The notes beneath the pieces are model-generated. The model saw only the letters and a program-made list of their open reading frames with translations. It was not told the DNA's origin and ran no database searches. 64,000 nucleotides of DNA, from the NCBI GenBank assembly GCA_964411985.1, contig CAYPNF010000005.1, positions 108,974 through 172,973 on the forward strand. The letters are read 5' to 3'. Positions 29,051 through 63,981 of this stretch are shown piece after piece. Each line of letters starts with the position of its first letter. Positions within the stretch are counted from its first letter, which is position 1. Position numbers and translations under genes: made by a program. Source of the DNA: an uncultured Verrucomicrobiota bacterium (GTDB lineage: Bacteria; Verrucomicrobiota; Verrucomicrobiia; Limisphaerales; J093).

Positions 29051-29062
29051 AGGCGCCTTGTG

Positions 29063-40799: not shown

Positions 40800-43700
40800 A
40801 TGGATAACCTGGGATCGAACGGTCACGCACGCCGACACGGCAGGGCAGACCTGCTGCTCTGGTTGGCCGTCGTTTCTGCAGCTACGTTCCTCTCGGGCTT
40901 GTGCCTTTCCGCCGAAGGGACTTCTGAAGCACCCATCACCTCCACCGCCAACCTGCGTGCTCTGTCACAGAGCGAGCCATCTCGCGCGTGCTGGGTGGAC
41001 CTGGACGCCCGAATCCTGGACTTCGGGCCGCACAAGGTTCTTCTGCAGGATAGTACAGGCAACCTGCTTCTGGAGGTTCCCTCGTTGCCACCAGGTGCCA
41101 AACCGGGAGCCAGGGTTCGGCTTCGGGGGCTGGCTATGGCAAGAGAGGGCTGGGTCTTCGCCGGTCGCTTGCCGCTTCTGGTGAATGATGGGATTCATGC
41201 CGAGTCTGAGGTTGCTTCGCGCGTCTGGTTTTCAGCAGGGAAATACCCCATCCATGCCGAGTTCTTCCAAGGAGCGGGGGAACAGGTGCTGGACTTGGCT
41301 TATGAAGGACCGGGGATGGCCCTGGCACCCATTCCGCCCTCCGCCTGGTCCCATGATCCGGTTCCCGGAACGAGCGCGAAATCTGAGCCAGGCCTCAAAT
41401 ACGCTTACTACGAGGGGACTTGGTCCGCCTTGCCCGATTTCCGGACTCTGACCGCTGTGAAGCAAGGGGTTGTAGACCAGATCCAACTTGCCGGACGCGC
41501 TCGCAATGAGAACTACGGATTCTGCTTTGATGGCTATCTCCATCTGCCGAAGGACGGAGAGTATACTCTGCATCTCAAGTCTGATGACGGCGCGCGATTG
41601 GTGGTGGAGAGCTACTCGTGCGAGATCCTCGAATCGACAGGGGGTGTGACACAGCCGAAGCCCATCCAACCGGGCCAACCCATGGCAGACAGCAACGAAC
41701 TCGTCTGGTCAGAAGTGGCCGCCAAGGTTCGGTTTGTCGGCGAGACCGAGGACTCCCTGCAGGTGGAGTTGACCACGGAAAGTGGCCGGATGACGGCGGA
41801 GGTTTTCGAGAAGATGGAGGGCCTTCGACTGCTCCTGCCTGAGAGCGAGGTGCGGATGCGGGGCGCGGTGCAGGGAGTGTTCAACGCCCATGGGGAGGTC
41901 ATCGCAGGACGCCTGCTGGTTCCAGGTCTTCAAACCCTGTCTATTGACCAAATCCCCAGCGCACGCTGGCTTCGCAGGCCAATCGAAAGCCTCTCCAATC
42001 TCGCATCCAGGATCGATCGCAAGCATACCGGTGAGTTGGTGAGGTTGAAAGGTACGATCCTTCGTGCGCAGAAAGAAGATGTGCCCTGCCTGGACGACGC
42101 CACGGGACGCGCGCTCCTGTACGGGATGGGGCAGATTCCTGATGAGCACGGCTCGAATGTCGAAGCGTTTGGCTTCCTGAGCCGGGAAGGAACCCATTGG
42201 GTGATGCGACCTGCTTTTGTAAGGCCAGCCTTAGCGCAGCCTGAGTCCATCCAGCGTCCAATCCTAACCAACGTTGTCCAAATTCAAGAACTGACGCCCG
42301 AGGAAGCGAATCGCAGATATCCGGTGGAGGTTCGTGGAGTGATCACTACTCGCAGCACGGGAGCAGCCCGAGTGCAGGATCGAACCCGCGGCATCTATGT
42401 GGCAGGGGTGGTGGGAGGCGAGGGAGACGGCCCACTGCCAGGTGGAGTCTATGTGGTGAAGGGTAATTCAGATCCCGGAGCGTTCGGCCCCACCCTGGCC
42501 ACCACCGGGATGGTCTACCTGGGACGGGGGCAGATGCCTGAACCCATTCACCCAACCTGGGAACAGCTGATCACGGGCAGTCTGGACGGGACCTTCATCG
42601 AGGTGGAGGGCGTGGTGCAGAAAGTGGAGGGACAAACCATGACCCTCGCGGTCAAGGGCGGGTATCTGAAGGTGTACGTGGAACGTCTGGGGAATGTGAA
42701 CCTTGCGGAGTATGATGGCTGCACGGTGACCATCCGAGGGGCCTTTAATCCGCAATTTAACGCCGAGACCCGACAGATCACTGGGGCCGGCCTCGATGTC
42801 CCTTCGCCGGCTTGCATCCAGATCGAGGAACTTGCGCCCAAGGACCCTTTCGCTACCCAATCCAAGAAGATCAGCGAGCTTAGGCACTTTGACATTCGTT
42901 CCAGCTACTTTCATCAAGTGAAGCTTCTGGGACAGGTGTTACACGCGGGAGTCGATCACAGTTTCTTGTTGGATGAGACTGGCGGGATCCGGTTCATTCA
43001 ACGAATATTTATGCCCTTGGCTCCTGGCGATCAGGTGGCGATCGTAGGGTATCCTGATCTAAGCGGCCCTTTTCCTGTCCTGCGCCAGGCCCGGGTTGCG
43101 AGGCAAGGCTCCGGATCCCTCCCCGATCCCAAGCCCATTCAAGCGGACGAGGTTTCGGGCCTGGAGTTGGATTGCAGGCTCGTCGAGATCGAGGGAACTC
43201 TGGTGGACATTTCTACCGGCCAGAACGAAACCACCCTGCAGATCCAATCGGGCGCACGATTGTTCGCTGCCCGGCTGCCGATGGACCGCAAAAAAACCAA
43301 AGTCATCGCTAAAGGAAGTGTGCTGCGGTTGACGGGCGTCTGCGCAATGCTACCCCCCTTGGTCCCAGGCTCGCCCCCGGAGAGTTTTGAGTTGCATCTG
43401 AATTCGTCTGATGACGTTACCGTTCTTCAGCACCCCAGCTGGTGGACTTTGAAGCACAGCCTGGCCCTGGCGGGAGGGTTGAGCGCCGTCCTGCTCCTCT
43501 CGGCTCTCTGGATCCGACAACTCCATCGGCGTGTGGAGTTGAGGACTCAGCAGTTGCGGAATGAGGTGGACGGACACAAGCAAACGGCTGCTCAATTACA
43601 GGAGAAGACCAAGGCACTCGAGATCGAGGTGGAGGAGCGCAAGAGAGCCGAGCAGGAAGCCAGGAAAGCGGAGGTGGCAGCTCAAGCCGCCAACAAGGCC

Positions 43701-45269
43701 AAAAGTGAGTTTCTCGCCAATATGAGCCATGAGATCCGCACCCCGATGAACGCCATCATTGGGATGAGCAGCCTCATGCTCGATACCAAGCTGGATGAGG
43801 AACAAGCCGAATTCGCCACCACCGTACGCACCAGTGGCGAGGCCCTTCTGGGCATTATTAATGATATCCTTGATTTCTCGAAAATCGAAGCCGGCAAACT
43901 CCATTTCGAGGCCCTCGATTTCAGCCTCTCCGATGTGGTCGAGAGTACCGCCGAACTCGTCGCAGAAAAAGCCCAGGCAAAGGGCGTCGAACTCGCCCTC
44001 CTGATCGAAAGCCAGGTTCCCGTCGCGCTGCGCGGGGATGCCGGACGCCTCCGGCAAATCCTGCTCAACCTCCTCAGCAACGCTGTCAAGTTCACGGAAA
44101 AAGGGGAAGTCTGCCTTGAAGTCACCCAACTCGACTCTAACGCGCGGGAAGTAACCCTTCGTTTCAGCGTGCGCGATACTGGGAAGGGCATCGCCCCAGG
44201 AGCCCTTGGCCGCCTCTTCAACCCTTTCGAACAGGAGGATTCTTCGACGACTCGCCGGTTTGGAGGCACGGGGCTTGGCCTGGCTATTTGCCGTAAGCTG
44301 GTGGAGATCATGCGTGGCAGGATTTGGGCTGAAAGCGTCGTCGGCGCCGGCTCCACGTTCTACTTCACCGCGGTTTTCGAGAAGCAGGACGCCGCAGGCA
44401 CTCCCACTCTCGCGCCGGAGCTCGGCCTTGCTGACCTGCGGGTTCTTGCGGTGGATGACAACGCTACGAATCGGAAGATCCTGCAATACCAGTTGCGGAG
44501 CTTCGGCATCTCTCATTTGGGCGAGGCTGCTAGTGGCGCGGAAGCGTTGGCTCTGATGGAGCAATCAGCCGAGAATGGGGAGCCTTTCCAGCTCGCCATC
44601 CTTGATTTTCAGATGCCAGGCATGGACGGCCAGATGCTCGCTACGCGGACCCAGGAACACCCCTTGCTGGAAGGCACCCGGCTGATCCTCCTAACCTCCA
44701 TCTGCCAACGGCTCGATCCGGAGCGACTCAAACAGGCCGGGATCGATGGCTGCCTGGTGAAACCTGCAAAACCGGCACAACTCCTGGATTGCATCCGTCG
44801 CGTGATGTCCGCCGTGAAACCAAGAATGTCGCAACGGGCGAAACCTGTGACTCCAGACTTGATTGTGATACCCGAGGGCAGAGGCAAACCTGTTCGCATT
44901 TTGCTGGCTGAAGACAACATCGTGAACCAGAAAGTGGCCCTCAAACAACTTCAGAAACTGGGTATCACCGCCGATGCGGTGGCGAACGGAATCGAAGTTC
45001 TGGAGGCCACCAGGCGAATCGATTACGATATCATCCTCATGGATTGTCTCATGCCGGAAATGGACGGCTTTGCCGCCGCCCGCACGATCCGTGGTCGGGA
45101 GGAAATGAGCGGTTCCCCTCCTATCCGGATCATTGCCATGACCGCGAATGCCCTGCAAGGGGATCGGGAAAAATGCTTAGAGGCTGGAATGGACGACTAC
45201 ATTGCCAAACCGGTGAGGCTGGAGGAACTGAGCAAAGTCATTGAGAGAAACCTGCCCGTTCGCTCGTGA
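40800..45269 (+). CDS. Hybrid sensor histidine kinase/response regulator with a large periplasmic sensor containing a PA14-like domain, one TM, HisKA+HATPase, and two receiver domains
   Basis: Signal/TM at N-terminus. PA14-like [58 protein letters not shown]. Coiled coil. H-box [13 protein letters not shown]; G-box [16 protein letters not shown]1 [11 protein letters not shown]...DFQMPGMDG; REC2 [13 protein letters not shown]...DCLMPEMDG. Confidence 0.85.
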
Positions 45270-51521: not shown

Positions 51522-52265
51522 ATGCGTTCTTATGCACCGAGGCTCCAGGCCTCCTTCCTCTGTGGGTTAGCAGTCGTCACTCTTCCTGGCGTTTTAGGCG
51601 AAGATGCGCCTGAAAATCCCACGGCTTGGAAGAGCAGCGCTGCTCTGAGTCTCACCGCCACCGCTGGCAATACCGAGCAGTTGATGGTGGCTGGTAACCT
51701 CTTGACTGCCAAGAAGTGGGAGAAAAACGAGCTGGGATTTGGCGCCAACTTCACCTATGGCGAAGACCAAGGCGACAAGAACGCGGAGAGCGTGGGTGGT
51801 TTCGGACAGTATAACCGCCTATTCAGCGACAAGTTCTATGTGTACGGCCGCGTGGATGCTTTGCACGATGCGATTGCCGACATCGAGTACCGCGTCTCGC
51901 TGAGCCCGGGTGCTGGTTACTATTTCCTGAAGAATGATCGTTTCACGCTCAGCGGTGAGTTCGGTCCTGGCTACGTTTTTGAAAAGCTGGGTTCCGACAC
52001 GCGTGACTACCTGACCCTGCGTTTTGGGGAGAGGTTCACCTGGAAGATCAGCGACCGCGCGCGGCTCTGGCAGTCGGCGGACTACAATCCCCGAACGGAG
52101 AATTTCGGTGACTACGTACTGAACGCTGAGGTTGGGGTGGAAAGCGACATTTCGAAGCATGTTGCCCTGCAGGCCTATGTTCAGGACAGCTACCGCAGCG
52201 AGCCAGCGGCAGGACGTGAGAGCAACGACCTCAAGGTCATGGCCGGTATCAAATACAAGTTCTAA
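51522..52265 (+). CDS. DUF481 (YdiY-like) outer-membrane beta-barrel protein
   Basis: Signal peptide. Alternating amphipathic beta-strands. C-terminal GIKYKF with terminal Phe. AT-rich sequence immediately upstream. Confidence 0.7.
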   Translation: MRSYAPRLQASFLCGLAVVTLPGVLGEDAPENPTAWKSSAALSLTATAGNTEQLMVAGNLLTAKKWEKNELGFGANFTYGEDQGDKNAESVGGFGQYNRLFSDKFYVYGRVDALHDAIADIEYRVSLSPGAGYYFLKNDRFTLSGEFGPGYVFEKLGSDTRDYLTLRFGERFTWKISDRARLWQSADYNPRTENFGDYVLNAEVGVESDISKHVALQAYVQDSYRSEPAAGRESNDLKVMAGIKYKF

Positions 52266-52366: not shown

Positions 52367-55237
52367 CTACTGATTCATCTTCTTGGCTGCTCGCTTCTTG
52401 GCGTCCAGCAACCGGCTCGCAGTGGCAACCGGTTTTGGAGCAGGCCCAGCGGTTTTCGCCGTTTCTGACTTCTCCGTAGACCCAGCCTTGGCCTTGGCGA
52501 GTTGGGCCGTGGACTCGCCCTTGGCCGCTTCCACGTTCGCTCCTTCGCTTGCCGGACGGGTGGAGCGCACTTGGTTACGGGTGGCCAGCAGTGCCGTCAG
52601 AGACTCGGTGGATTCAGCCACCGTTTCGGAACGCCGCCAGAAAAAAAGACGCCGACGCACCAATACAGCTACCCGCGACCACTCCTCCCGGTCGAGGAAG
52701 ATCCGTCGCACCGCCACGTCCAGCACGAACAGCACCACCGCAAACTTAAGCAGGCCTTCCCAGAGATCGCGAGGTTGGTAGGTCTTTTGGCGATCGTGCA
52801 GATAGGGGTTTGGAGGCTCCCCTGATGGCGTCCCCATCGACAGAACGCGGCCTCCTCCGGACTCAGCGACCTGTTGCAGGAGGCTATGATTGGGCTCCGT
52901 GGTGCTGAACTCTGGCGAATAGCTGACGGCTGCCCCGACCGACTGGGCCGCAACCGTTTGTCCGTTGCGAATCTCAGCTACATTGAGCAGATAGGCTCCT
53001 ACCTCCGTGGCAGGGAACCTGGCTTCGTATCGTCCTGGCCCTGTCTGCTGAAGCCGAGCCGTGATCCGTTCGCCTTTGGGGCTGACCACAGCGGCCTGCA
53101 AATTCAGGAAACTCCGATAATTGCCCTCCGCATCCATGGCTTCGACCGTGAGAACTCCTTCGCCTCGGTCAATGCTCACCTCCGGGTTCAGGTCTGCCGT
53201 GTCGACTCGCTTCAGCGACCACCTGGCGGTCTGCGACCAAAACTGGCGGTACTTCTCCCATGCCACCCAATCCGCGGCCCATCGGGCTTTGGCGTCCGAG
53301 GTGAAAGCAACGGAGCGACCCAACCCATACTGCCAGTGGGCGAGGACCGGGTCCCCGTTCGGGGAGAGAAGAGGCACTTCGGCCCGTCCCTTGGGTGTGG
53401 CGCACACATATCCTTTGAGTTCTGGATACTCGGAGGCAGAGATGCCGCGAACCAGTTCCGTGGTCGCGGCCAATTGCGGACGGAACGGCTCTTCAAAGAT
53501 GGCCGACTTGAGAATCACCATGGCCTCTTTAATGAAGATCTGGGGCAGGCTTCCCGGGTCTCGTACATCATAGAATCGCCCTCGGCCCTGTTCCGCGATC
53601 CGGATCATCGTTTCTGGCCCAGCGTGTCCAGAGATCAGGACGGTACTGACGGTGATGCGGTCGTTCACGATCGCCTGCATCAGCTCTGAAGTGGGTGGTC
53701 CGGGGTCCCCGTCGCTGAACACGATGATATGCTTTAGGTTCGCAGTCGATTTCTTCAGCCCTTCGTGCGCCATTTCCATCACATGTTGGAAGGTGGGCAG
53801 GTCGCCCTGGTTCATGCCAGAGATTTGCCGGCCGAGTTCTTTCTTGTCGCCAGCTTTCGTCAAGGGGAAGAGCCATCGGTCCGTTCCATCCCAAAGAACC
53901 ACTCCCAGTTCGTCCTGAGGGCCAAGGGCGTCGAGAGCCGCCAGGGCGGTTTCCCGGGCCACCTGGTTGCCGTTGTTGAATTCCATGCCATGCATGATCA
54001 GGGCGAGCGCTCCGCTGGGCAGAACCTTCTTGCTGTTGAGTTCCATGTCGACCGGGAGCGCTTTCTCCAGAGGTGTGCCTCGATACGCCCCGGCCGCATA
54101 CGCTTGATCACCGCCGATGCACACGAGGCCTACCCCAAAGTCCCGGACCGCGCTTTCCAGCAACCGCATGAAAACCTCACCCAGGTCGCCCGCCGCAACG
54201 TTGCTGAGGAACACGGCGTCGAAGCTCTGGATCTCAGCGAGCGAACCCGGGAGAGCGGTGGCATCGACCGCCTTGACTTCCAATCGGGAGGCACGAAGTG
54301 CATTCACCAAGGGCGCGTCTTGCGCGGGATCGGACGAGAGAAGCAGGATGCGCGGGTCACCTCGGACGGCGGCGAAAGTCGAGGCTCGGTTGTTCTGAGC
54401 CACAGGATCGCCTGGGGCCTCCAGTTGCACGTCGTAGCTGTAAAATCCGGCTTCGGTGATGGTTTGTGGGAGAGCGAAGAGGTTCTTGCCTGCACTCAGT
54501 TCCACCGGCTGTTCCCCGAGGAATTGGTTGTTACGAAAGAACCGCAGTTTGGCGCTCCGTGCCCGGTCTGCCTGGGCCAGAATCCGCACCTCGAATGCCT
54601 GCCCGCGTTTGAGCTTGGGGGGGATGGTAAGCTTCTGCAGAGAGACATCCCCGCTGCGGCTGACCCCGAGAGGCACGACATCGAGCGAGACGCCAAGAGT
54701 CCTGGCAGCCGCCATGGCGCTGGCGACGCTTCCGGCGTTCTCGTTGCCATCCGAGAGCAGCACCAGTCTCTTCTGACCCGTCTCGGGAAAGGCTGCACTT
54801 CCCAGGCGCACGGCCGAGGCCGCGTCCGTTCGTTCCCCGCCGATCACCGCCTGGACCTTCTGCACGTCCACGCGCGGGCTAGCCGCACTCTCGATGCTGG
54901 CTCCGTTGCCGAAGACAATCACCCCGCCTTTGTCGATGGTCTTCTTCTTCGCGGAGGCCTGGTTCACATACTCCCGCGCCTGCTCTTGCTGGGTCGTGGG
55001 GATGCTGTCAGAGCGGTCTAGCAGGAAGAAGACCGTCATCCCTTCCAGCGGTTTCAGCCATTGCAGGCCAGTGAGGGCGAGCGCGAGACAAAGGGTGACC
55101 ACCAGACGAACCACGAGCGCGGCCCACTTTCGAACCGGAGTGAGCTGAACATCCGAAGTTCTGCTGAGCCAGACAATCCAGGCTACCGCCAGCGGCAGCA
55201 GGACGATCCAGGCGGGGTTGGTCAGCTGAAACTTCAT
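52367..55237 (-). CDS. Large BatA/BatB-like membrane-anchored VWA-domain protein (~956 aa), last gene of the MoxR operon
   Basis: Start chosen at MKFQLTNPAWIVLLPLAVAWIVWL (BatA_N-like), forming an ATGA overlap with the upstream gene; the ORF tool start is 55390. VWA MIDAS-like LLDRSDS. Lys/Ala-rich C-terminal tail. Confidence 0.75.
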   Translation of the reverse strand: MKFQLTNPAWIVLLPLAVAWIVWLSRTSDVQLTPVRKWAALVVRLVVTLCLALALTGLQWLKPLEGMTVFFLLDRSDSIPTTQQEQAREYVNQASAKKKTIDKGGVIVFGNGASIESAASPRVDVQKVQAVIGGERTDAASAVRLGSAAFPETGQKRLVLLSDGNENAGSVASAMAAARTLGVSLDVVPLGVSRSGDVSLQKLTIPPKLKRGQAFEVRILAQADRARSAKLRFFRNNQFLGEQPVELSAGKNLFALPQTITEAGFYSYDVQLEAPGDPVAQNNRASTFAAVRGDPRILLLSSDPAQDAPLVNALRASRLEVKAVDATALPGSLAEIQSFDAVFLSNVAAGDLGEVFMRLLESAVRDFGVGLVCIGGDQAYAAGAYRGTPLEKALPVDMELNSKKVLPSGALALIMHGMEFNNGNQVARETALAALDALGPQDELGVVLWDGTDRWLFPLTKAGDKKELGRQISGMNQGDLPTFQHVMEMAHEGLKKSTANLKHIIVFSDGDPGPPTSELMQAIVNDRITVSTVLISGHAGPETMIRIAEQGRGRFYDVRDPGSLPQIFIKEAMVILKSAIFEEPFRPQLAATTELVRGISASEYPELKGYVCATPKGRAEVPLLSPNGDPVLAHWQYGLGRSVAFTSDAKARWAADWVAWEKYRQFWSQTARWSLKRVDTADLNPEVSIDRGEGVLTVEAMDAEGNYRSFLNLQAAVVSPKGERITARLQQTGPGRYEARFPATEVGAYLLNVAEIRNGQTVAAQSVGAAVSYSPEFSTTEPNHSLLQQVAESGGGRVLSMGTPSGEPPNPYLHDRQKTYQPRDLWEGLLKFAVVLFVLDVAVRRIFLDREEWSRVAVLVRRRLFFWRRSETVAESTESLTALLATRNQVRSTRPASEGANVEAAKGESTAQLAKAKAGSTEKSETAKTAGPAPKPVATASRLLDAKKRAAKKMNQ

Positions 55238-57642
55238 GACTGGTTTCCTGATGCGATGGGTTTGCCGTTTGCCACTCCTGCTGGACGCGTTGACCCGGAG
55301 AGAGGGTGGCGCCGGGTCAGCTTTTGTACTCGATGGTTTCCCGCGTCCGCGACGTAGAGGTTGCCGCAGGAGTCCAGGGCGACGCCCCACGGGTTGCTGA
55401 ACTCGCCCGGGGCAGTCCCGCGGCAGCCGATGATCTCGCTGCTTTTTCCCCGCGTATCGAAAACCTGGATGCGGCTGTTGCCAAACTCACAGACGAATCG
55501 CATCCCGGTCGCATCGATTTTGACATCGTACGGGTACCCTAATTGGCCGATCCCAGAACCGGGTTCGCCGTAGCTCTCGACCGCTTCCAGCGTTGGGGAC
55601 AGGATCTGGATCCGGTGGTTGCAGGAGTCCGCCACATGAAGATTACCTTGGGCATCCAATCCCAGACCCTCCGGACGGTTAAACTGCCCCAACTCCTTGC
55701 CGTAGGTTCCAATCGACTTGACCCAGTTCGATCCTCCGGCCGAGAAGAGTTGCACCCTCTCGACGACTCCGTACTCGCTCAGGAAAGTCTGGCCTTGTGG
55801 GTTGACCGCGATGGCGCGCGGAAACGAAAGTTCACTCGAATTGGTGCCCTTGCGTCCCCACTGGTGCAGTAAGGTTCCATCCCTCGCATAGGAATTGACC
55901 CGCGAATAGTGTGGCTCCAACACCGTGATCCGACCGTCCTGATCCAGGCACATGCCTTTCGGTTTGCCCAGATCGGTCTGGGGGAGTTGCCACGACTTCA
56001 GGAAGACGCCCGTCGAGGAAAACTTCTGAACCCTTCCGGTCATGTCCACCACATAAAGATTGTCGTCGGCGTCGACTGTGACAGAGCGAGGCTTGTTCAG
56101 TTGGCCGGGATTCGTGCCACGCGAACCAATGACGTCGACCCGCGCGAACAAAGGATCATTCAACTCCCGGGAACTTGGGCTCTTGGGGGAACATCCTGGC
56201 AGTAGAAGACAAAGCGAAACTCCTCCCAGCACCACGGATCTCCTGCCGAGCCAGCCGCTGCCGCTGAGTTGTCGTCCCAACGCTCCCCAGCCCAGGTAGA
56301 GGATTGCGGGAACCATGGCCAACCCCACCAACCAGAGGGTCAGGGCGGTGATCTCCGGGTTGTGGCCGTAGTGGAGAAGGTTGAAAATGCGCAGCGAGGC
56401 GGTCTCGATGCCTGGGGGAATGATGAGCAGAAGGGTCTCCAGATCCCAGAGACAGAGCAGGTAGGTCGCGTACCAGGCGGCGCAGACTTGCGGCAGGATC
56501 TGAGGCCATTCTGCATGCCTGAACACGGTCCAGCGGTGGGAGGTCTCCAGGTGCACCATGTCCGTCAAGGCTGTACCGGCCGACCTTCGAGCCAGGGAAC
56601 TCCCGCCCCAACCGACCACGAAGTAGCGCAGGCACAACGCCAACACCACGATGATGGGGCTGGAATACAGGAGCCCGGTTAGGTCGTGGTTGAAAACGAG
56701 AATCATCGCGAGTCCGATGAGCACTCCGGGGGTGAAGAAGGGAATCCAGACCCACCACCCCAGCCTTTTTCGGTGAAACAGCAGGCCACCTGCAGCGCTC
56801 AGGCTGGCTACGGTTGCGCCAAAGAACAGCGACCAGCCCAGCGTGGGAGCGGAGGCATGGAAGGACGAGACCAGCGAACTTCCCGAAACAGATCCCCAAA
56901 GGAGAAAGACGAGCGGAACGGCGGCAGCCAAGGCAAACGTTATGGCCGTTGTGGCGCGGCAAAACCACAAGAGCGCACTTCCCAGCCGTTGTCTGAAAAC
57001 CTCGTAACCAGCCGTCTTTACGGGCGGGTAGTGGAACTCGCTGGTACTGAGCCACCAAACGCCCGCCAGTGGCAAGAGGATCATCGGGATGGCCGTCTGC
57101 ATGGCTGCCATGTAATCCCAAGTCGTGCTAAACCGGACGTAGAACTCGGCTGGGAAGACCTTCACCTGGAGAATGGACGGTATGGTGAATTGGTTGAACG
57201 TGAGTACAAAAACCACCAAGCCCGAGTGGAGCAAGCCAGCTTTAGCGGCTGGCCAAAGGAGGTGTTGAGCCAGCAGTCCTCCGGACAGGTCGGGTTCTGC
57301 TTCCAAAAGTGAGTTGCCCAGCCGCATCAAGGCCCCTGCGACGGCGAAAGCCGGCAAAGGCCAGTAAAGCAGGGCCAGTAGCCAGGAGGCACCTCCCAAA
57401 GAGTAGATGGAGCAGGGGATGATGCCGCGCAGACTTCCCTCATGGCCGAGCAGGGCCAACCAACAGTCAGCTACGAGAAACGGGGGCAGCATCAGGACCA
57501 GAATGGCCGTCATCGTGAGGAACCTGCGGAGCCTGGGCCCAGACGCCAGCCAGCAAAGCGCTGCTATGCTTCCCAAGGCCAGCGCACCGGTAGTGGCGAG
57601 CAGACTTGAGGCGAGTGAGTTCAGTAGCAGGCTCCAGCTCAT
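55234..57642 (-). CDS. Fused double ABC-transporter permease (FbpB/ThiP-like, ~12 TM) with a C-terminal six-bladed NHL-repeat beta-propeller
   Basis: N-terminal 470 aa contain two permease halves (~12 hydrophobic helices). C-terminal 330 aa carry six NHL repeats: LNKPRSVTVDADDNLYVVD, FPRAIAVNPQGQTFLSEYG, FNRPEGLGLDAQGNLHVADSCNHRIQIL, FSNPWGVALDSCGNLYVADAGNHRVQKL and two more. Confidence 0.75.
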   Translation of the reverse strand: MSWSLLLNSLASSLLATTGALALGSIAALCWLASGPRLRRFLTMTAILVLMLPPFLVADCWLALLGHEGSLRGIIPCSIYSLGGASWLLALLYWPLPAFAVAGALMRLGNSLLEAEPDLSGGLLAQHLLWPAAKAGLLHSGLVVFVLTFNQFTIPSILQVKVFPAEFYVRFSTTWDYMAAMQTAIPMILLPLAGVWWLSTSEFHYPPVKTAGYEVFRQRLGSALLWFCRATTAITFALAAAVPLVFLLWGSVSGSSLVSSFHASAPTLGWSLFFGATVASLSAAGGLLFHRKRLGWWVWIPFFTPGVLIGLAMILVFNHDLTGLLYSSPIIVVLALCLRYFVVGWGGSSLARRSAGTALTDMVHLETSHRWTVFRHAEWPQILPQVCAAWYATYLLCLWDLETLLLIIPPGIETASLRIFNLLHYGHNPEITALTLWLVGLAMVPAILYLGWGALGRQLSGSGWLGRRSVVLGGVSLCLLLPGCSPKSPSSRELNDPLFARVDVIGSRGTNPGQLNKPRSVTVDADDNLYVVDMTGRVQKFSSTGVFLKSWQLPQTDLGKPKGMCLDQDGRITVLEPHYSRVNSYARDGTLLHQWGRKGTNSSELSFPRAIAVNPQGQTFLSEYGVVERVQLFSAGGSNWVKSIGTYGKELGQFNRPEGLGLDAQGNLHVADSCNHRIQILSPTLEAVESYGEPGSGIGQLGYPYDVKIDATGMRFVCEFGNSRIQVFDTRGKSSEIIGCRGTAPGEFSNPWGVALDSCGNLYVADAGNHRVQKLTRRHPLSGSTRPAGVANGKPIASGNQS

Positions 57643-57643
57643 T

Positions 57644-58609
57644 CTATCTTACAAAAAGGGTCTCAAGTTTCGTGGTTGTATCCACCAATTCCTTCGCGAG
57701 GTCGGTTAACAGTCGGTCCCAGTCGGTCTGCAGCGTCGCTTGTCCCACTCGCGAGGGATCCTCTCCCTCCAGTGCATCGGCTTTCACCAAAGCCTGGAGC
57801 GTCGATGACGAACGCAGGAATTCCGCTAACCGCTCCGCTTCGGTCGGGTGGGGACACCGTGCGACGATCCCCACGCTGTTCCGAATGAGAAGCATCTCCT
57901 CGCTCAGATCCAGGATGGCTATGGGGGCTCCACGGCGAAGCTGCCCTAGGGCGTCGTCGGAGTCGGTTAGGCCGATCCAGGCTTCCCCGGACGCGACCAA
58001 CTTGGCAACCACGGAATTCCCGTCCACCACCATGACCTTGTTGATGAGAAGGTCTTGGCACCAGCGATGCCAGCGCTCCTCACCCCAGCGTTGGTGGAGG
58101 GCTGCGAAGTGGGCTGCGGTGGTCCCAAACACGGGATAAGCCATCGCGACCTTGCCGCGCCAGGCGAACTGGGTGAGGTCCGCCAGAGAGCGGGGGGCCT
58201 GTGTTGCCTGGAGATGGTTGGTGTTGTAGATCAGTCGGCGGCTCCGGTACCCAACGCTGAACCATCCGTTGGTTTCGCGGAAAACTCCTGCCGTCGCGAG
58301 TTGCCTCGTGCGCAGCTCTTCGTTGCTCCAGAAGACGTCGCACTGCGGGCGTGCCTTCTCCGCCAGTAACCGGTTGGCCAGGCCGACGGTCTTCACTGCT
58401 TCGCTGTCGTATACCGCGCGCACTTGGATTCCGGTTTGTTCGGTGAACTTGCGCAGGAGGGGCTCGGCAAAGACCTGGTCCTGGGAAGTGTAGATCACCA
58501 CTTGGGGAGTCGGAGGAGCACAGCCGAACAGGGCCAGCACCAGGCATAACAGAGCCAGGAATCCGTGCAGCGGATGCCAAGTTCGTGGTGATGCAGGAGG
58601 AGGGCGCAT
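57644..58609 (-). CDS. ABC transporter periplasmic substrate-binding lipoprotein (FbpA/ThiB/PotD-cluster, iron(III)/thiamine-type)
   Basis: Lipobox LALFGC at the internal Met start; the ORF tool start 58675 overlaps the upstream gene. Type II SBP pattern. Confidence 0.7.
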   Translation of the reverse strand: MRPPPASPRTWHPLHGFLALLCLVLALFGCAPPTPQVVIYTSQDQVFAEPLLRKFTEQTGIQVRAVYDSEAVKTVGLANRLLAEKARPQCDVFWSNEELRTRQLATAGVFRETNGWFSVGYRSRRLIYNTNHLQATQAPRSLADLTQFAWRGKVAMAYPVFGTTAAHFAALHQRWGEERWHRWCQDLLINKVMVVDGNSVVAKLVASGEAWIGLTDSDDALGQLRRGAPIAILDLSEEMLLIRNSVGIVARCPHPTEAERLAEFLRSSSTLQALVKADALEGEDPSRVGQATLQTDWDRLLTDLAKELVDTTTKLETLFVR

Positions 58610-58619
58610 GAGGTGTTGG

Positions 58620-60461
58620 TCAGGCGGTTCGTCGGTGGTAATACCACCATTCCCACAAAAGCAGGGCAAAGGCACCCAGGGCCGCCCATCGCCATAGCTC
58701 GCGGCTTGCCGACGCCTGCCGGCTGGCTGCGACTCGCGTATACCGTCCCAGCTTGATCTCCGCTTGGGGTGTTGTGTCCGTCTCCGGCGCGTCCAGGAGG
58801 TTTACACAAAACTTGGCTTGGTTCGTTCCGGCAGAAAGTTCGTAGATCCCGCAACGCAAGGTGTCACCGAACACGACCTCGCGATCGCCCAAGAGCGCTG
58901 GTAACTCCTGCGTTGGCCCGGTCCCCCGTCGCACGCTGGCAGTCTGAATCGCAGTCCCGGCCGGTATCTGCAGGCGCAACGGGTCACCCGCTTTGACCAT
59001 CGAAGCAGACGATTTCGCGCCCGCCGGATTCAGCCACTCCAGAGCGTTGGCGATGAAGATGGGGAAGGAAACCCGGAGCGGCCAGGTGCTCTGCAACGGG
59101 TCGAACGCCAGCCAGATCAGGCGTCGTCGCGCTTGCTCCCCGGCAAGCAGAAGGGGTGCGTTCTGGCCGTCTACGATCGATTGCCCCCAACCGGGAGTCT
59201 GCGCAGCCAAAGCCTCGGTGATTTGCACATTCTCCAAACCCACAAATCGCAGGATGGGGTGCGTGGTGTTCCAGTCCACAATGGAGGGAGACTCTACCTT
59301 GCCTGTCACGGTCAGCCAGTTGGTCTGGCTCCCGCGCACCGCCAGCAGATTTCCGGTGGGCCAAACCAGAGGCGGAACGTCGTCCAATACCACGATGTCC
59401 ACATCGGGCGAAGCTTCAGCGAGATCCGGAGCCACTCCGAGCTCCACCCTGGGCGCCGAGGTCAGGGCTTTCTCGAGAAAACGGTTGCCCTTCGTAACCA
59501 GCAGCACGCGGATCGGTTGAGGCAGCAGGCTTTGAATGGAGACTTCATTATCCACCGCCAGGTCGTCCTCCAGATTGAGGCGCAACGTGAATACTCCATC
59601 CTGGTCTTGCGCCACCGTGAAGACTTCGCCTGAGGTTTGCCGTGCCTTCAGTTCCACCCCACGACTGCTGATAAAGCCTCCTTCAAAATGGAGTTCGAGG
59701 GTGCCGGCCAAGTCGTTCGTCGAGGCGTTGAAGAGGTTGACAAACACCGCGCGCCGGCTGGGATCGTCGGGGTGCGCACGAACATCCAAGTTCACGATTC
59801 CCGCGTTGCGCGCGGCTTTGCCGGAGGCATGGTAGATCAGGTTCAAGTTCTCGTTTTCGAACTCCGTGAGTGCCGGGAATGCGCCGTCACTGAAAAGGTG
59901 AATCTCCGCCTCGCTCCGGTCCTTCACCAAAGACAACGCCAGTTTGAACGCATCCACCAGCCGGGTGGGGCCATCGGAAACCGTGCAGGCATCGAGGGCT
60001 CTTTTCAGTGCCACCTTGCTGCCAGTGGGCGACTGCATGACCTGGGTCTGCGGACCCGCAAGCAACACCACCATCTGGTCACTATCCTGAATGGACTGGG
60101 CCAGTTGGGAGGCTTCGGCTCGAGCCTTTTCGAACCGGGAAGGGGACTCATCCTTGCTCTGCATGGAGGCGGAGCCATCGAGAATGACGACCAGCAGTCG
60201 GCCTATTGCGGTCTTACTGGAGAGATAGGGACGCGCCAGTGCCACGACCGCGAAAGCAAGCAGGAGAATCTGGAGCACCAGCAGCCAATTGTGCCTCAGT
60301 TTTTGGAACGGAGCGCTCGCCTGGGTCTCCGCCAGAAACTTCTTCCAGAGGAGCGTGCTGGGGACAAGTTTCACCACCCTTTTGCGCTTCAGCAAGTAGA
60401 ACAGGATGACCACGGGAATCGTGGCCGCAAAGAGGAACGCGACTGGAGCAAGGAAGCTCAT
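58620..60461 (-). CDS. BatA-like aerotolerance-related membrane protein (BatA_N domain + VWA-like region)
   Basis: MSFLAPVAFLFAATIPVVILFYLLKRKR...LLVLQILLLAFAVVALARP matches the BatA N-terminal two-TM signature. Confidence 0.8.
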   Translation of the reverse strand: MSFLAPVAFLFAATIPVVILFYLLKRKRVVKLVPSTLLWKKFLAETQASAPFQKLRHNWLLVLQILLLAFAVVALARPYLSSKTAIGRLLVVILDGSASMQSKDESPSRFEKARAEASQLAQSIQDSDQMVVLLAGPQTQVMQSPTGSKVALKRALDACTVSDGPTRLVDAFKLALSLVKDRSEAEIHLFSDGAFPALTEFENENLNLIYHASGKAARNAGIVNLDVRAHPDDPSRRAVFVNLFNASTNDLAGTLELHFEGGFISSRGVELKARQTSGEVFTVAQDQDGVFTLRLNLEDDLAVDNEVSIQSLLPQPIRVLLVTKGNRFLEKALTSAPRVELGVAPDLAEASPDVDIVVLDDVPPLVWPTGNLLAVRGSQTNWLTVTGKVESPSIVDWNTTHPILRFVGLENVQITEALAAQTPGWGQSIVDGQNAPLLLAGEQARRRLIWLAFDPLQSTWPLRVSFPIFIANALEWLNPAGAKSSASMVKAGDPLRLQIPAGTAIQTASVRRGTGPTQELPALLGDREVVFGDTLRCGIYELSAGTNQAKFCVNLLDAPETDTTPQAEIKLGRYTRVAASRQASASRELWRWAALGAFALLLWEWWYYHRRTA

Positions 60462-60468
60462 GCCCGGA

Positions 60469-61362
60469 TCAGCCCAGCACCTCCGCTTCCCGAAAGCGCC
60501 GTAGCAACAAGTCCTCCAGAGCGGTCGATGAACTCACCATGAAATGACCCGCTCCCCGCGCACCAGCGTAGTCCCTCAGCTCTCCCACAAACTGCTCCAA
60601 GGTCTGGAGATAGGCTTGAAGTCGGAATTTTCCAAAGGTTAACTCCTGCTCGAAGCCGGTCTCCGAATCCACCAATTTCAGGTCCCCGTACGTCGATGGC
60701 TGGAGCTCTTCGGGCGAAAGTACCTGAACGAGGGTCACTTCGCTGCCGCGGGCCAGCAGCGCTTTGAGGCCGGCCTGATAGCCCTCGGGATCAAGAAAAT
60801 CACTCAGGACGATGGATACCCCGGTGCGGCGCATTTGCAGGGCGCCACGACGCAGGCACTCGCCGATCCCAGCCGCCCCGCCCGCTCGGAGCTTTTCCAG
60901 ATTCTGGAAGAACCGGAGCGTCGATCGTTTTCCCCTGACCTGGCGTAGTTCGGCCTGCGCCAGTGGGGGGATGGCGGTTGTGGGGAAAGGGACTACGCTC
61001 ACTCGGTCAAAACTGCAGAGGGCGACATATCCGATCGCTGCCGCGAGCCGACGGGCAAAATCGAACTTTGAAGGTTCCCCAAATCCCATCGATTCGCTGC
61101 AGTCCAGGAAGAGGGTCACTGGCAGTTCTCTCTCCTCCTCGTAAAGTTTGAGGAACAGTCGGTCGAGCCGGCCGTAGAGGTTCCAGTCCAGGTAACGCAG
61201 ATCGTCCCCGGCGACGTAGTTGCGGTAATCGGCAAACTCTACGGAGTGTCCGCGCGCACGGCTTCGCCTCTCCCCCTTGGCGGAGGTTTTGGTTCTACGG
61301 GCTGCCAGCAGTTGGCACTGCTCCAACTGGCGCAGCAGCGAAGGAGGGAGCAGAGCGCTCAT
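60469..61362 (-). CDS. DUF58-family protein (MoxR-associated, VWA-like)
   Basis: GHSVEFADYRNYVAGDDLRYLDW...ELPVTLFLDCSESM is the DUF58 signature. ATGA overlap with the MoxR stop. Confidence 0.85.
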   Translation of the reverse strand: MSALLPPSLLRQLEQCQLLAARRTKTSAKGERRSRARGHSVEFADYRNYVAGDDLRYLDWNLYGRLDRLFLKLYEEERELPVTLFLDCSESMGFGEPSKFDFARRLAAAIGYVALCSFDRVSVVPFPTTAIPPLAQAELRQVRGKRSTLRFFQNLEKLRAGGAAGIGECLRRGALQMRRTGVSIVLSDFLDPEGYQAGLKALLARGSEVTLVQVLSPEELQPSTYGDLKLVDSETGFEQELTFGKFRLQAYLQTLEQFVGELRDYAGARGAGHFMVSSSTALEDLLLRRFREAEVLG

Positions 61363-62408
61363 GCGACCGTCTGCGCCTTGGCCGCCGGCACTTCACGCGG
61401 AACGAGCTTGAGAATCTCCGCCGCGACGTGGTCTGAAGTGATTCCCTCCGCTTCGGCTTCAAAATTGACCAGCAACCGATGCCGCAAGGCTGGCAGTACC
61501 GCCACCTCGATGTCCTCGAAACCTACGTTGAATCGTCCCTGCGCCAGAGCTCGCACCTTTCCTGCCAGGATCAGCGCTTGCGCCCCACGCGGACTGCTGC
61601 CAAACCGGAGGAACTGATTGACCATGGGCAACGCCGTCGCGGTTTTGGGGTGGCTCGCCAGAACCAGGCGAACGGCGTAGTCTTTGACGTGCGAAGCCAC
61701 CGGCACTTCCCGGACCAGCCGTTGGAGCTGGATCAGTCGGTTCCCGTCAATGATCTTTGAGATTTGGGAACGCACGTTCTCGGTAGTGCGGTTCAGTACC
61801 TCGGTCAATTCTGAAGCGCTGGGATAGCTGACCACCAATTTGAAAAAGAAACGATCCAACTGCGCCTCTGGCAGGGGGTAGGTTCCCTCCTGATCGATCG
61901 GATTCTGAGTGGCGAGCACGAAGAACGGTTCGGCAAGCTTGCGCACTTCGCCCCCCGCCGTGACGCTGTGTTCCTGCATCGCTTCGAGCATGGCGGATTG
62001 CGTCTTGGGGGTCGCGCGGTTGATTTCGTCCGCCAGGATCAGATTGGCGAACACCGGGCCGCGCTGGAACTGAAACGCCCTTCCGCCTCCCGGGCTTTCC
62101 ACCACCATGTTCGTTCCCAGGATGTCCGCTGGCATCAGGTCCGGGGTGAATTGAATGCGGTTGAAGGACAAATCCAGGACTTCGCCCAAGGTTCGCACCA
62201 AGAGAGTTTTTCCCAATCCTGGCACGCCCTCCAGCAGCACGTGCCCCGCCGCCAGGATCGCAGTGAGCGTTCCGTCAACGATCGATTCGTGCCCGACAAT
62301 CACCTTGGCGATTTCTTTCCGCAGATCCTCGTACGTTACGCGAAACTGGGCAATTTCCTGCTCGGTACTCATGTTTCCTTTCGATTCCTTACTTCTTGAG
62401 GTCGTCAA
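61359..62408 (-). CDS. moxR: MoxR-family AAA+ ATPase
   Basis: Walker A GVPGLGKT; Walker B LLADEINRA; sensor motifs of the MoxR subfamily. ~349 aa. Confidence 0.9.
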   Translation of the reverse strand: MTTSRSKESKGNMSTEQEIAQFRVTYEDLRKEIAKVIVGHESIVDGTLTAILAAGHVLLEGVPGLGKTLLVRTLGEVLDLSFNRIQFTPDLMPADILGTNMVVESPGGGRAFQFQRGPVFANLILADEINRATPKTQSAMLEAMQEHSVTAGGEVRKLAEPFFVLATQNPIDQEGTYPLPEAQLDRFFFKLVVSYPSASELTEVLNRTTENVRSQISKIIDGNRLIQLQRLVREVPVASHVKDYAVRLVLASHPKTATALPMVNQFLRFGSSPRGAQALILAGKVRALAQGRFNVGFEDIEVAVLPALRHRLLVNFEAEAEGITSDHVAAEILKLVPREVPAAKAQTVA

Positions 62409-63981
62409 AGTATTCTTTCACTGCGTTTTGGTAGGCCCGGGGCACCTGATCCTGGCTCAAGGCGCTCTCCGCTTCTGTCTGAGCTGCACTGACCGCCTCT
62501 TGAATCACGACCGTGCTCTGTCCCTTTAGGCTGACACCCCTGAGGGTCACACTAGGCATCTGCCCCCCTGGGGACATCTGCCCCTTGAGCCTCGTCGGGA
62601 CAATGCCTTCAGGCAGCTTGCCTTCCCCTCGGTCGGCGAGCCCTTTGGCCTCCGCGTCCTGACGTTGCACGCCGCTATTGTCCCACATTTCCGCCTCCGT
62701 CGGGGGTTCCATCCAGAGCGACTCATCAGCCCAGGTCCCCACGCCCTTGCCCGGTTTTCCCCCCTGCTTACCAGAGCCACCCGGTCGTTGAGCCATGGAC
62801 CAGCCACTCCCATTCCCGAGCCCAGCTTGGGCCTTCCCCAAAGCCTGAAGCGCCGACTGGAGATCCTCCATGCCAGCCATCTGTTCCTGCAGCTCATCCA
62901 ATTCCTTCGCAGCCTGCTGCATAGAACTACCGGATTCCGTCTTCTGACCTTGCCGCAACTCCCTCAACGCCTTCTGCAGCTGATCGGAAACCTTGCCGTA
63001 GTCCTTCGCCGGGCCGATTGCTTTCTCCAGTTCCTGCTCCATCTTTTTCAATTGCTCGGCCGAAGGGGTGCCTGACGTGAGTTGCTTGGCCATCTTACGC
63101 AGCGTCTCCGCTGCCGGGGCGGTTTGCCCTCGCTCCAACTGCTCGGACAGCGTTTTACCCATGGCCTGAGCCTGTTGCTGCATTTTTTGTAGTGCCTTGG
63201 TCAGCTCCATCATCTTGGAAAGATCCTGGTCTGAGGCCTCCAAATTCTTGAGCACCTGGTCAATTTTCGCGGTCTGGAAAGACTCCATTGCCTGTTCCAG
63301 GCCATCCAGCGGAACATTCAGCCCCTGCGCTTGTTTTGAAAGGTTCGACAGCGCTTCCGAGAGGGCCTGTTTCTGCTCCGGGGTGGCGGCGGGACCTTGC
63401 GCGAACATTTGTGCCGCAGCCTCCCTGGCTTTCTGCAGCGCCTGTTCTAGTTTCTGCAGCGCTTCGGGAGCTGGAGATTTTTCTCCGAGCTGCTTCTGGA
63501 GCGCCTCCATCTGTTGCTGCAACTGCTCTGGGCTGGTTGTCTGCCCAGGGGCGCTGCTGCGCGCCATCTTCTCCAGATTCCGCAAAGCTGGGTTCTGGGC
63601 CAGGTTTTTGGCCTCCTGCCGAATCCTGTCTCCTACCTTTGCCAGTTCCTTCAAAGCTTCCTGCACAGCGGGTGGTTGGCGGCTCAATTGCGCACCCAGG
63701 TCGCCCACCGCCTTCAGAGCCTCTTGAGCCTTTTCCAGCGATGGAGACTTCCGTTCCGGGATCTTGCGCACTACTTCGACCAGTCCCTTCCCCACCTCCC
63801 GCACTTGCTCTTTTCCCTTCTCTTTCTGCTGATGAGCCTTGGATCGGTACTCAGGCGCGAATCCCACTGCGAAGGCCAGGGTGAGCAAAAGGAGCACGTA
63901 CCGGCTGCAATGGGGAAGAGAGAAGGGTAAAAGGTGCCCGGCCGGTTTGGCCTTGAGCTGGTTGGAGGCGTCCAACACCAC
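62389..63981 (-). CDS. Membrane-anchored Gln/Ala/Lys/Glu-rich coiled-coil protein (hypothetical) leading the MoxR operon
   Basis: N-terminal hydrophobic anchor (YVLLLLTLAFAVGFA), ~350 aa of heptad-rich low-complexity sequence, and a Gly-rich C-terminal region. 20-nt overlap with moxR. The start Met is 20 nt from the window edge, so the true start could lie outside. Confidence 0.55.
   Translation of the reverse strand: MVLDASNQLKAKPAGHLLPFSLPHCSRYVLLLLTLAFAVGFAPEYRSKAHQQKEKGKEQVREVGKGLVEVVRKIPERKSPSLEKAQEALKAVGDLGAQLSRQPPAVQEALKELAKVGDRIRQEAKNLAQNPALRNLEKMARSSAPGQTTSPEQLQQQMEALQKQLGEKSPAPEALQKLEQALQKAREAAAQMFAQGPAATPEQKQALSEALSNLSKQAQGLNVPLDGLEQAMESFQTAKIDQVLKNLEASDQDLSKMMELTKALQKMQQQAQAMGKTLSEQLERGQTAPAAETLRKMAKQLTSGTPSAEQLKKMEQELEKAIGPAKDYGKVSDQLQKALRELRQGQKTESGSSMQQAAKELDELQEQMAGMEDLQSALQALGKAQAGLGNGSGWSMAQRPGGSGKQGGKPGKGVGTWADESLWMEPPTEAEMWDNSGVQRQDAEAKGLADRGEGKLPEGIVPTRLKGQMSPGGQMPSVTLRGVSLKGQSTVVIQEAVSAAQTEAESALSQDQVPRAYQNAVKEYFDDLKK

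Follow-up and report, generated by a model that had tools for sequence, protein, structure and literature searches.

The locus examined here raises the question of whether a bacterial gene that encodes an ATP-binding cassette (ABC) permease and an NHL β-propeller in one reading frame specifies a permanently joined protein or two proteins made as one chain. The gene lies on the minus strand of a 64,000-nucleotide stretch of contig CAYPNF010000005.1 (hereafter the window), from an uncultured Verrucomicrobiota bacterium, where an open reading frame (ORF) of 802 codons runs uninterrupted from ATG to TGA (window 55234-57642). Judged by comparison with its relatives, the gene unites a permease gene and a lipoprotein gene that occur elsewhere as a pair, and its mature products may be two proteins, such that "fusion" would fit the gene better than the working machine. 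The second point is raised because the linker between the two halves is a conserved lipoprotein signal and the NHL domain also exists as a separate lipoprotein gene.

Reading frame and domain layout

The encoded chain was divided into the parts given below, with positions in the window.

55234..57642, minus strand: whole permease-NHL ORF, 802 aa, comprising permease, internal lipoprotein signal and NHL propeller
56266..57642, minus strand: FbpB-type fused double permease, residues 1-459, 5+6 transmembrane helices, N-terminus outside (profile, Foldseek, Pfam of orthologues, AlphaFold2, Lys/Arg loop counts)
57244..57321, minus strand: first EAA-type coupling-helix motif, residues 108-133, LEAEPDLSGG...LWP (family alignment)
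56497..56583, minus strand: second EAA motif, residues 354-382, canonical in the family and degenerate in the window (family alignment)
56191..56265, minus strand: internal lipoprotein-type signal, residues 460-484, with n-region GRQLSGSGWLGRR, h-region SVVLGGVSLCLLL and lipobox LPG-C484
56191-56193, minus strand: Cys484 codon
55312..56172, minus strand: six-bladed NHL β-propeller, residues 491-777, predicted periplasmic (Pfam, profile, AlphaFold2, Foldseek, repeat alignment)

A sequence-only reading of this DNA had described a double-permease core of about 12 transmembrane helices that continues without a stop into some 330 residues containing six NHL repeats. The continuous frame is borne out by the ORF itself, and the six repeats by a Pfam NHL match to the C-terminal part of the protein (E = 5.6e-28), six modelled blades and six aligned repeat units. 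The double-permease core also stands, by its FbpB-type homology, but the permease has 11 helices (5+6) and the twelfth is the signal sequence. Likewise, the NHL part is present but smaller than proposed, with a domain of about 290 residues followed by a 25-residue disordered tail. The periplasmic location suggested for the propeller is backed, as a prediction, by the topology of an AlphaFold2 model and by positive-inside counts. This model was built from an input of 34 orthologues and has a mean pLDDT (predicted local distance difference test) of 83.5 and a pTM (predicted template-modelling score) of 0.71.

An internal lipoprotein signal

The linker consists of basic residues, an uncharged stretch and then L-P-G-C484, which together amount to a complete lipoprotein signal peptide. 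Cys484 occurs without exception, in 34/34 and in 80/80 fused sequences, in a linker whose preceding 24 columns average 27% identity. All 79 sequences that were scored have Gly, Ser or Ala at -1. When a lipoprotein signal was defined as a basic n-region, a hydrophobic h-region and a lipobox [LVI][ASTVI][GAS]-Cys, the strict PROSITE-like lipobox pattern was found in 64 of the 79, and a looser rule (8 or more uncharged residues followed by [GAS]-Cys) held in 79/79. The uncharged run that serves as h-region has a median length of 16 residues, and the n-region before it a median of 2 Lys/Arg. At +2 after the cysteine, Ser, Ala, Gly or Thr was present in 73 of 79 fused sequences and Asp in none (0/79). 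A plain anchor helix would need none of these lipoprotein-signal features.

What sets this signal apart is its place in the chain. It starts at residue 460 of the window protein, past 11 transmembrane helices, and an N-terminal position is seen solely in split or stand-alone NHL orthologues. Because residues 450-466 are cytoplasmic by charge counts, helix 12 is predicted to cross outward and to place the NHL propeller in the periplasm. The model gives this helix (residues 465-480) a pLDDT of approximately 55 and residues 482-486 values below 50, and shows no sign of a structural role for Cys484. From the conservation of the motif, Cys484 is probably lipidated by Lgt. LspA could cut before Cys484 because the -1 residue is always small; such cleavage is a call that falls slightly on the doubtful side of even.

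Distribution of fused and split forms

A cluster search covering a collection of 5.8 billion proteins returned more than 120 protein clusters of 770-830 residues that carry PF00528 and PF01436 on one chain, with 45-53% identity and 97-100% query coverage. All named clusters belong to the Verrucomicrobiota (Limisphaerales, Pedosphaera). When each GTDB species was represented by one genome, at least 580 genomes were found to encode a relative. The fusion was present as one ORF in 79 of the 82 loci that were fetched, which are the best full-length matches. Existing names for these proteins are generic ("ABC transporter permease subunit", "6-bladed beta-propeller", "Fe3+ transport permease/YncE"), the JGI label is "ABC-type Fe3+ transport system permease", and no curated NCBIfam model spans the permease-NHL family. 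The sequence-only reading had known of no characterised ABC permease with an NHL fusion, and our searches agree, having found neither a curated family nor a paper describing one.

That reading had also named frame continuity and orthologues with the same fusion as the points to check. Both are answered by the family, which is large and conserved, so that the fusion is no one-off. A frameshift in sequencing or assembly that joined two genes in the window might be suspected from the split versions that occur in other genomes, but the same continuous ORF recurs in independent clusters and in loci from independent assemblies. This rules out an artefact for the family and leaves a frameshift in the window with negligible probability.

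Split forms were seen in two ways. In loci L018 and L076, an in-frame stop falls within the variable linker and the next ORF opens with an ordinary lipoprotein signal, e.g. MCFPTQNYKRHRTVRTWSMLLVMLLGFLCMVGGC in L076. Searches with the NHL domain as the only query returned many proteins of 300-380 residues with 57-64% identity and N-terminal lipoprotein signals. These matches are nearly all short, many on contigs of 1-3 kb, where genuine genes and truncated fragments are not separable by a simple classifier; no frequency is therefore given for the split form, and only seven cases on long contigs were counted, all seven of which are true separate genes. Loci with separate NHL genes have the following arrangements.

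L085: full cluster, in which a 473-aa permease gene overlaps a 347-aa NHL gene
L084: permease, NHL and VWA-GATase1-like genes joined by ATGA-type overlaps
L083 and L087: permease and NHL genes only
P0158 and P0242: NHL and VWA-GATase1-like genes with a 4-nt overlap, permease absent
L086: NHL gene alone

Where the permease has a gene of its own, it shares 40-44% identity with the N-terminal half of the window protein. Because split, permease-less and stand-alone genes exist, the NHL lipoprotein is, as far as gene content tells, an autonomous module that pairs with a permease, a VWA protein or both.

The residue at +2 differs between these arrangements, being Asp in P0158, Glu in P0242 and Asp in P0199, a further stand-alone NHL lipoprotein, and Ser, Ala, Gly or Thr in permease-fused or permease-adjacent forms. 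P0158 and P0242, which are without a permease, directly precede a VWA-GATase1-like gene. Lipoproteins of Escherichia coli with Asp at +2 stay in the inner membrane, and the rule in Verrucomicrobiota may differ.

The separate genes also bear on the alternative that helix 12 is simply a twelfth membrane anchor, with the NHL domain permanently tethered as a periplasmic receptor or gate and the lipobox either a relic or lipidated without cleavage. The predominance of the fused form among the fetched best full-length matches, the pTM obtained for the whole two-domain chain and the persistence of permease-NHL pairs without substrate-binding protein (SBP) or VWA genes, which indicates that the two parts work together, are consistent with such a tether. 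An extra membrane crossing that takes a C-terminal periplasmic domain outward is moreover a known arrangement in ABC permeases with fused substrate-binding domains. Permeases of this sort, of the OpuA and GlnPQ type, were reportedly described by van der Heide and Poolman in 2002. They likewise place a periplasmic domain C-terminal to a type-I transmembrane domain by means of an extra crossing helix; the window protein, however, carries an NHL propeller where these have an SBP fold, its crossing helix has all the elements of a lipoprotein signal including an invariant cysteine, and a separate SBP is encoded as well. A relic, for its part, would not hold the cysteine and a small -1 residue in every sequence of so variable a linker, and NHL genes that are split off or stand alone, opening with a lipoprotein signal at the N-terminus, show that the covalent link is dispensable. 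A permanent tether is thus possible but unlikely.

Some contigs (L024, L025, L035, L052, L054, L070, L071, L073 and L079) carry a typical Limisphaerales cluster under foreign labels, namely Methylomirabilota, Acidoferrum, Bifidobacteriaceae, Baltobacteraceae, Limnocylindrales and Akkermansia. These are apparently errors in the binning or labelling of metagenome-assembled genomes.

The permease half and the question of iron transport

Pfam BPD_transp_1 stayed below threshold for the window protein on its own, and the corresponding PF00528 was matched by 29 of 34 orthologues. Both permease halves match NCBIfam PhnU2, PhnV and PotC. The family profile aligned with the FbpB chain of Thermus thermophilus (9j4r_A; E = 2e-19, positions 2-451) and with PotC (E = 8e-17), and Foldseek placed the AlphaFold2 model on 9j4r_A with a target TM-score of 0.76. 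The permease half thus has the two tandem BPD_transp_1-like transmembrane domain halves of a type-I importer. In the model, its 11 helices are arranged 5+6, with short coupling helices at 110-115 and 357-366. Lys/Arg counts in the loops obey the positive-inside rule, with the N-terminus outside and both coupling loops, as well as residues 450-466 (GRQLSGSGWLGRR), in the cytoplasm.

The first EAA motif has the family consensus LESDPALxG..LLRWLLLP, with conservation of 90% or more at E114, G121 and P131. The second reads DAARLEGASRW..WPQI in the family and DMVHLETSHRW..WPQI in the window, with Gly replaced by Thr, and the window permease is an outlier within the family in this respect. Because both motifs are kept family-wide as well as the helices are, even in lineages without an adjacent SBP, their conservation argues that the permease family still engages an ATPase encoded elsewhere.

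FbpB (T. thermophilus FbpBC, PDB 9J4R), PotB/PotC and PhnU/PhnV resemble the window permease in having two tandem type-I importer halves on a single chain. With FbpB it shares EAA motifs, which are kept at family level with the second degenerate in the window copy, the conserved post-EAA segment (NNFAVPAILQVKVFPAE / LWDVETLVLIVPPGGETL..FNLLHYGH) and an FbpA-like SBP gene directly upstream. It lacks the first ~30 N-terminal residues of FbpB, and its own 5+6 helices are set by model and charge counts. Unlike FbpB, it has no linked ATPase, carries a signal-like helix and an NHL domain at its C-terminus, lies in a MoxR/VWA operon and is accompanied by an SBP without the Tyr-Tyr iron ligands.

The closest solved relative of this SBP is T. 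thermophilus FbpA (TtFbpA; E = 2.7e-14), which binds Fe3+ through Tyr219 and Tyr220 (PMC10804667). When the alignment was extended ungapped, TNH-Y219-Y220 of TtFbpA lined up with TDS-D-D of the window SBP, and TDSDD or TDMDD was kept in the four orthologue SBPs examined (L004, L036, L056 and L076). The tyrosinate pair that ligands Fe3+ in FbpABC systems is therefore not present. Because Tyr-Tyr is replaced by Asp-Asp, tyrosinate-bound ferric iron is an unlikely ligand of this SBP.

An ordinary FbpABC-type ferric importer with an accessory periplasmic domain, an ATPase elsewhere and an incidental location among Bat genes would agree with FbpA and FbpB as nearest solved relatives, with the JGI label and with EAA motifs conserved in the family. 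Such an importer is nonetheless rather improbable. In addition to the exchanged tyrosines, no ATPase is found in 81 of 82 loci and 13 of 63 have no SBP; the position between the BatA-VWA and VWA-GATase1-like genes is near-universal, with overlapping codons; and NHL-VWA pairs occur without any permease. A canonical ferric importer is weakened in particular by the Asp-Asp pair and the lack of a linked ATPase.

The NHL propeller

The C-terminal domain is a six-bladed NHL propeller, modelled as 24 strands in six four-stranded blades (residues 491-777) and composed of six regular repeat units with anchors P518, P561, P608, P657, P704 and P751. Foldseek superposed it on the NHL domains of TRIM71, TRIM2 and Thin with a target TM-score of approximately 0.9. 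The residue after the proline of each blade shows little or no variation across the family (R519, K562, R609, E658, Y705 and W752), and K517, R656 and Y703 are further conserved residues near this ring. We take the post-proline position to start the innermost strand and line the top entrance, where the zinc histidines of PAL and the RNA-binding sites of TRIM/Brat proteins would also sit. A ring of basic and aromatic side chains that includes a single acidic one suggests that an anionic ligand or a partner peptide is bound, rather than catalysis.

TRIM71, TRIM2 and Brat and the extracellular NHL sensor of PknD have the six-bladed fold in common with the window domain (25-30% identity, target TM-score 0.8-0.9), and TRIM/Brat NHL domains use a basic top face for ligand binding. 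The window domain differs in being bacterial, predicted periplasmic and lipoprotein-anchored. That the propeller is instead a periplasmic enzyme for the transported solute, such as a PAL-like lyase or SMP30-like lactonase, is hinted at by weak Pfam matches to SGL and Vgb_lyase, a profile match to PAL (3fvz; E = 3e-14) and the invariance of the central top-face residues. The best matches by far, however, are to non-enzymatic NHL domains of the TRIM/Brat/PknD type (E = 1e-66; target TM-score 0.9), and the positions where PAL would have its zinc histidines hold R, K, R, E, Y and W, which look more like a binding face than a metal site. An enzyme of either kind is accordingly not favoured and is very improbable.

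Operon and genomic setting

On the minus strand, genes for a 530-aa protein, MoxR, DUF58, BatA-VWA, the SBP, permease-NHL and a VWA-GATase1-like protein follow one another. The neighbours of the permease-NHL gene are as follows.

62389..63981, minus strand: first cluster gene, 530 aa, in which no Pfam domain reached significance; 33/46 loci have a homologue upstream of MoxR
61359..62408, minus strand: MoxR AAA+ ATPase (AAA_3, E = 3e-62)
60469..61362, minus strand: DUF58 protein (Pfam)
58620..60461, minus strand: membrane protein with BatA N-terminal and VWA domains (Pfam BatA, VWA_2)
57644..58609, minus strand: FbpA-like SBP lipoprotein, signal ...LALFGC (Pfam SBP_bac_11)
52367..55237, minus strand: VWA-VWA-GATase1_like-Ig membrane protein, ~955 aa, the "giant VWA protein" of the sequence-only reading (Pfam)

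A spacer of 1 nt separates the SBP stop from the permease ATG, and the permease-NHL TGA and the VWA-GATase1-like ATG (55237) overlap as ATGA; the operon is translationally coupled. Counted in loci with enough flanking sequence, the VWA-GATase1-like gene lies downstream of permease-NHL in 66 of 67 and the BatA-VWA gene upstream in 61 of 63, whereas the SBP is present in 50 and absent in 13 of 63 (~20%); MoxR was found in 33 of 46. A cognate SBP is thus encoded next to the permease, whereas no cognate ATPase is encoded at the locus. Within the 64-kb window, no in-frame LSGGQ or Walker A motif was found in any real ORF, and Pfam detected no ABC ATPase. A MalK-type query matched in only 1 of the 82 loci, on the opposite strand. 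An ATPase may be encoded elsewhere in the genome.

MoxR (AAA_3), DUF58 and BatA-N VWA proteins in one cluster constitute a Bat/MoxR-DUF58-VWA operon, and the same set is common to the Bat operons (BatA-E, Borrelia BB0170-0176 and Leptospira bat). Unlike the window cluster, classical Bat operons are without an ABC permease, SBP or NHL protein. The charges flanking the N-terminal helices of both neighbouring VWA proteins fit a periplasmic orientation of their VWA domains, and the BatA-type VWA domain of Borrelia BB0173 was shown experimentally to be periplasmic (PMC5700661). Deletion of bat in Leptospira gave no oxidative-stress phenotype (PMC3557215).

A second MoxR-containing system, the MoxR-vWA-β-propeller ternary conflict system, was considered and rejected on architecture. 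Its vWA protein has a C-terminal propeller of about four blades, and its third component combines a variable N-terminus, TPR and a propeller (Kaur et al. 2020, PMC7159879). By Pfam, the VWA proteins of the window instead lack a propeller and are built with BatA-N or GATase1_like/Ig domains, its MoxR matches AAA_3 at 3e-62 versus bpMoxR at 2e-11, and its propeller is a six-bladed NHL domain on the permease/lipoprotein, not on a vWA protein.

Insertions into the cluster were seen in two loci. In L078 (5973-8828), genes for a PLD-like nuclease and an Eco57I-type methyltransferase, a restriction-modification pair, lie between BatA-VWA and permease-NHL, and the downstream VWA-GATase1-like gene is absent. 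In L085 (3236-3808), a Uma2-family endonuclease gene lies between MoxR and DUF58, and the cluster is otherwise intact.

A few kb past the VWA-GATase1-like gene, a DUF481 outer-membrane β-barrel gene is encoded in the window (51522-52265, plus strand), L084 (15681-16706) and L085 (16310-17314). In L084 and L085, it is accompanied by acylphosphatase, metallophosphoesterase and GT9 genes, and the wider synteny may be conserved. The window further encodes a 1489-aa hybrid histidine kinase that has a PA14 domain at its N-terminus and two receiver domains (40800-45269, plus strand), an M16 peptidase pair (27632-30418), a GH38 α-mannosidase and a BT_1020-like propeller/sialidase-CBM protein. This remainder is the ordinary chromosomal context of a polysaccharide-degrading verrucomicrobium.

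A model for the permease-NHL product

We propose that two adjacent, translationally coupled genes, for an FbpB-type type-I ABC permease and a downstream NHL lipoprotein, were fused in evolution and that the NHL part serves as a periplasmic hub, a reading that we consider about as likely to be right as wrong. The product would insert as a 12-helix protein, in which the chain ends up in the cytoplasm after the 11 permease helices and helix 12 then crosses outward in the manner of a signal peptide, carrying Cys484 and the propeller into the periplasm. Lgt would lipidate Cys484 at the outer face, and LspA would cut before it to free an NHL lipoprotein that is still anchored in the membrane and continues to work together with the permease. 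As the hub of the module, the propeller would dock a ligand or partner on its top face (R519/K562/R609/E658/Y705/W752) and couple the permease to the VWA domains that the flanking Bat-type proteins expose in the periplasm, while the cytoplasmic MoxR/DUF58 pair would remodel the membrane complex. Any transport by the permease would draw on an ATPase encoded at another locus and, for most lineages, on the lipoprotein SBP.

Among the roles that the sequence-only reading had offered for the NHL domain, gating the transporter or binding the SBP is not favoured, given the absence of a linked ATPase and the loci without an SBP. Its suggestion that the domain binds the giant VWA protein fits best, in that the two genes are adjacent and overlapping even where the permease is absent; binding as such is read from this adjacency.

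A chain of comparable design is known. In the cytochrome b-c1 polyprotein FbcH of Bradyrhizobium, too, a polytopic membrane protein and a protein with a periplasmic domain are made together, with an internal signal peptide between them. This signal was reportedly found by Thony-Meyer et al. (1989/1991) to be cleaved after insertion. The FbcH site is one for type-I signal peptidase, whereas that of the window protein is of type II, for lipoproteins, and its cleavage is presumed. By extension, the window product could be a membrane "polyprotein" in which permease and lipoprotein are made as one chain and separated or lipid-anchored at the internal lipobox, with the NHL domain bridging an ATPase-less FbpB-like permease to MoxR-driven Bat VWA proteins and transporter parts recruited to a non-canonical function. 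We regard this fuller picture as speculative and doubt it.

Several points weigh against the proposed processing and hub. If cleavage made fused and split forms equivalent, the dominance of the fused form would be hard to explain. The lipobox of the window protein itself, LLPGC, has Pro at -2 and passes the loose rule but fails the strict pattern. The invariance of Cys484 could also reflect a metal ligand or a disulfide with invariant C674 or C718, and literature searches found no precedent of a polytopic protein that is lipidated and cut at a lipobox within its chain. The putative NHL-VWA contact is a suggestion from gene adjacency. Finally, the degenerate second EAA motif may mean that coupling to an ATPase is weakened or lost in the window organism.

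Implications

Each part of this system belongs to a known family, and their combination was found nowhere described: literature searches returned no account of a type-I permease with an NHL lipoprotein attached by way of a conserved internal lipobox, without a linked ATPase, at a fixed position in a Bat/MoxR-VWA operon. Hundreds of Verrucomicrobiota species from soil and freshwater carry the family, so far under generic annotations only. If the internal signal is used, its conservation within a 12-helix protein would widen the substrate range of Lgt and LspA and would provide a rare bacterial case of membrane polyprotein processing. The series of fused, split, permease-less and stand-alone genes maps the parts that must cooperate. 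Bat/MoxR-VWA operons are widespread, and in this lineage they are extended by an SBP, a permease and an NHL lipoprotein; the ligand of the SBP and the partner of the NHL face offer handles on the periplasmic targets of their VWA proteins.

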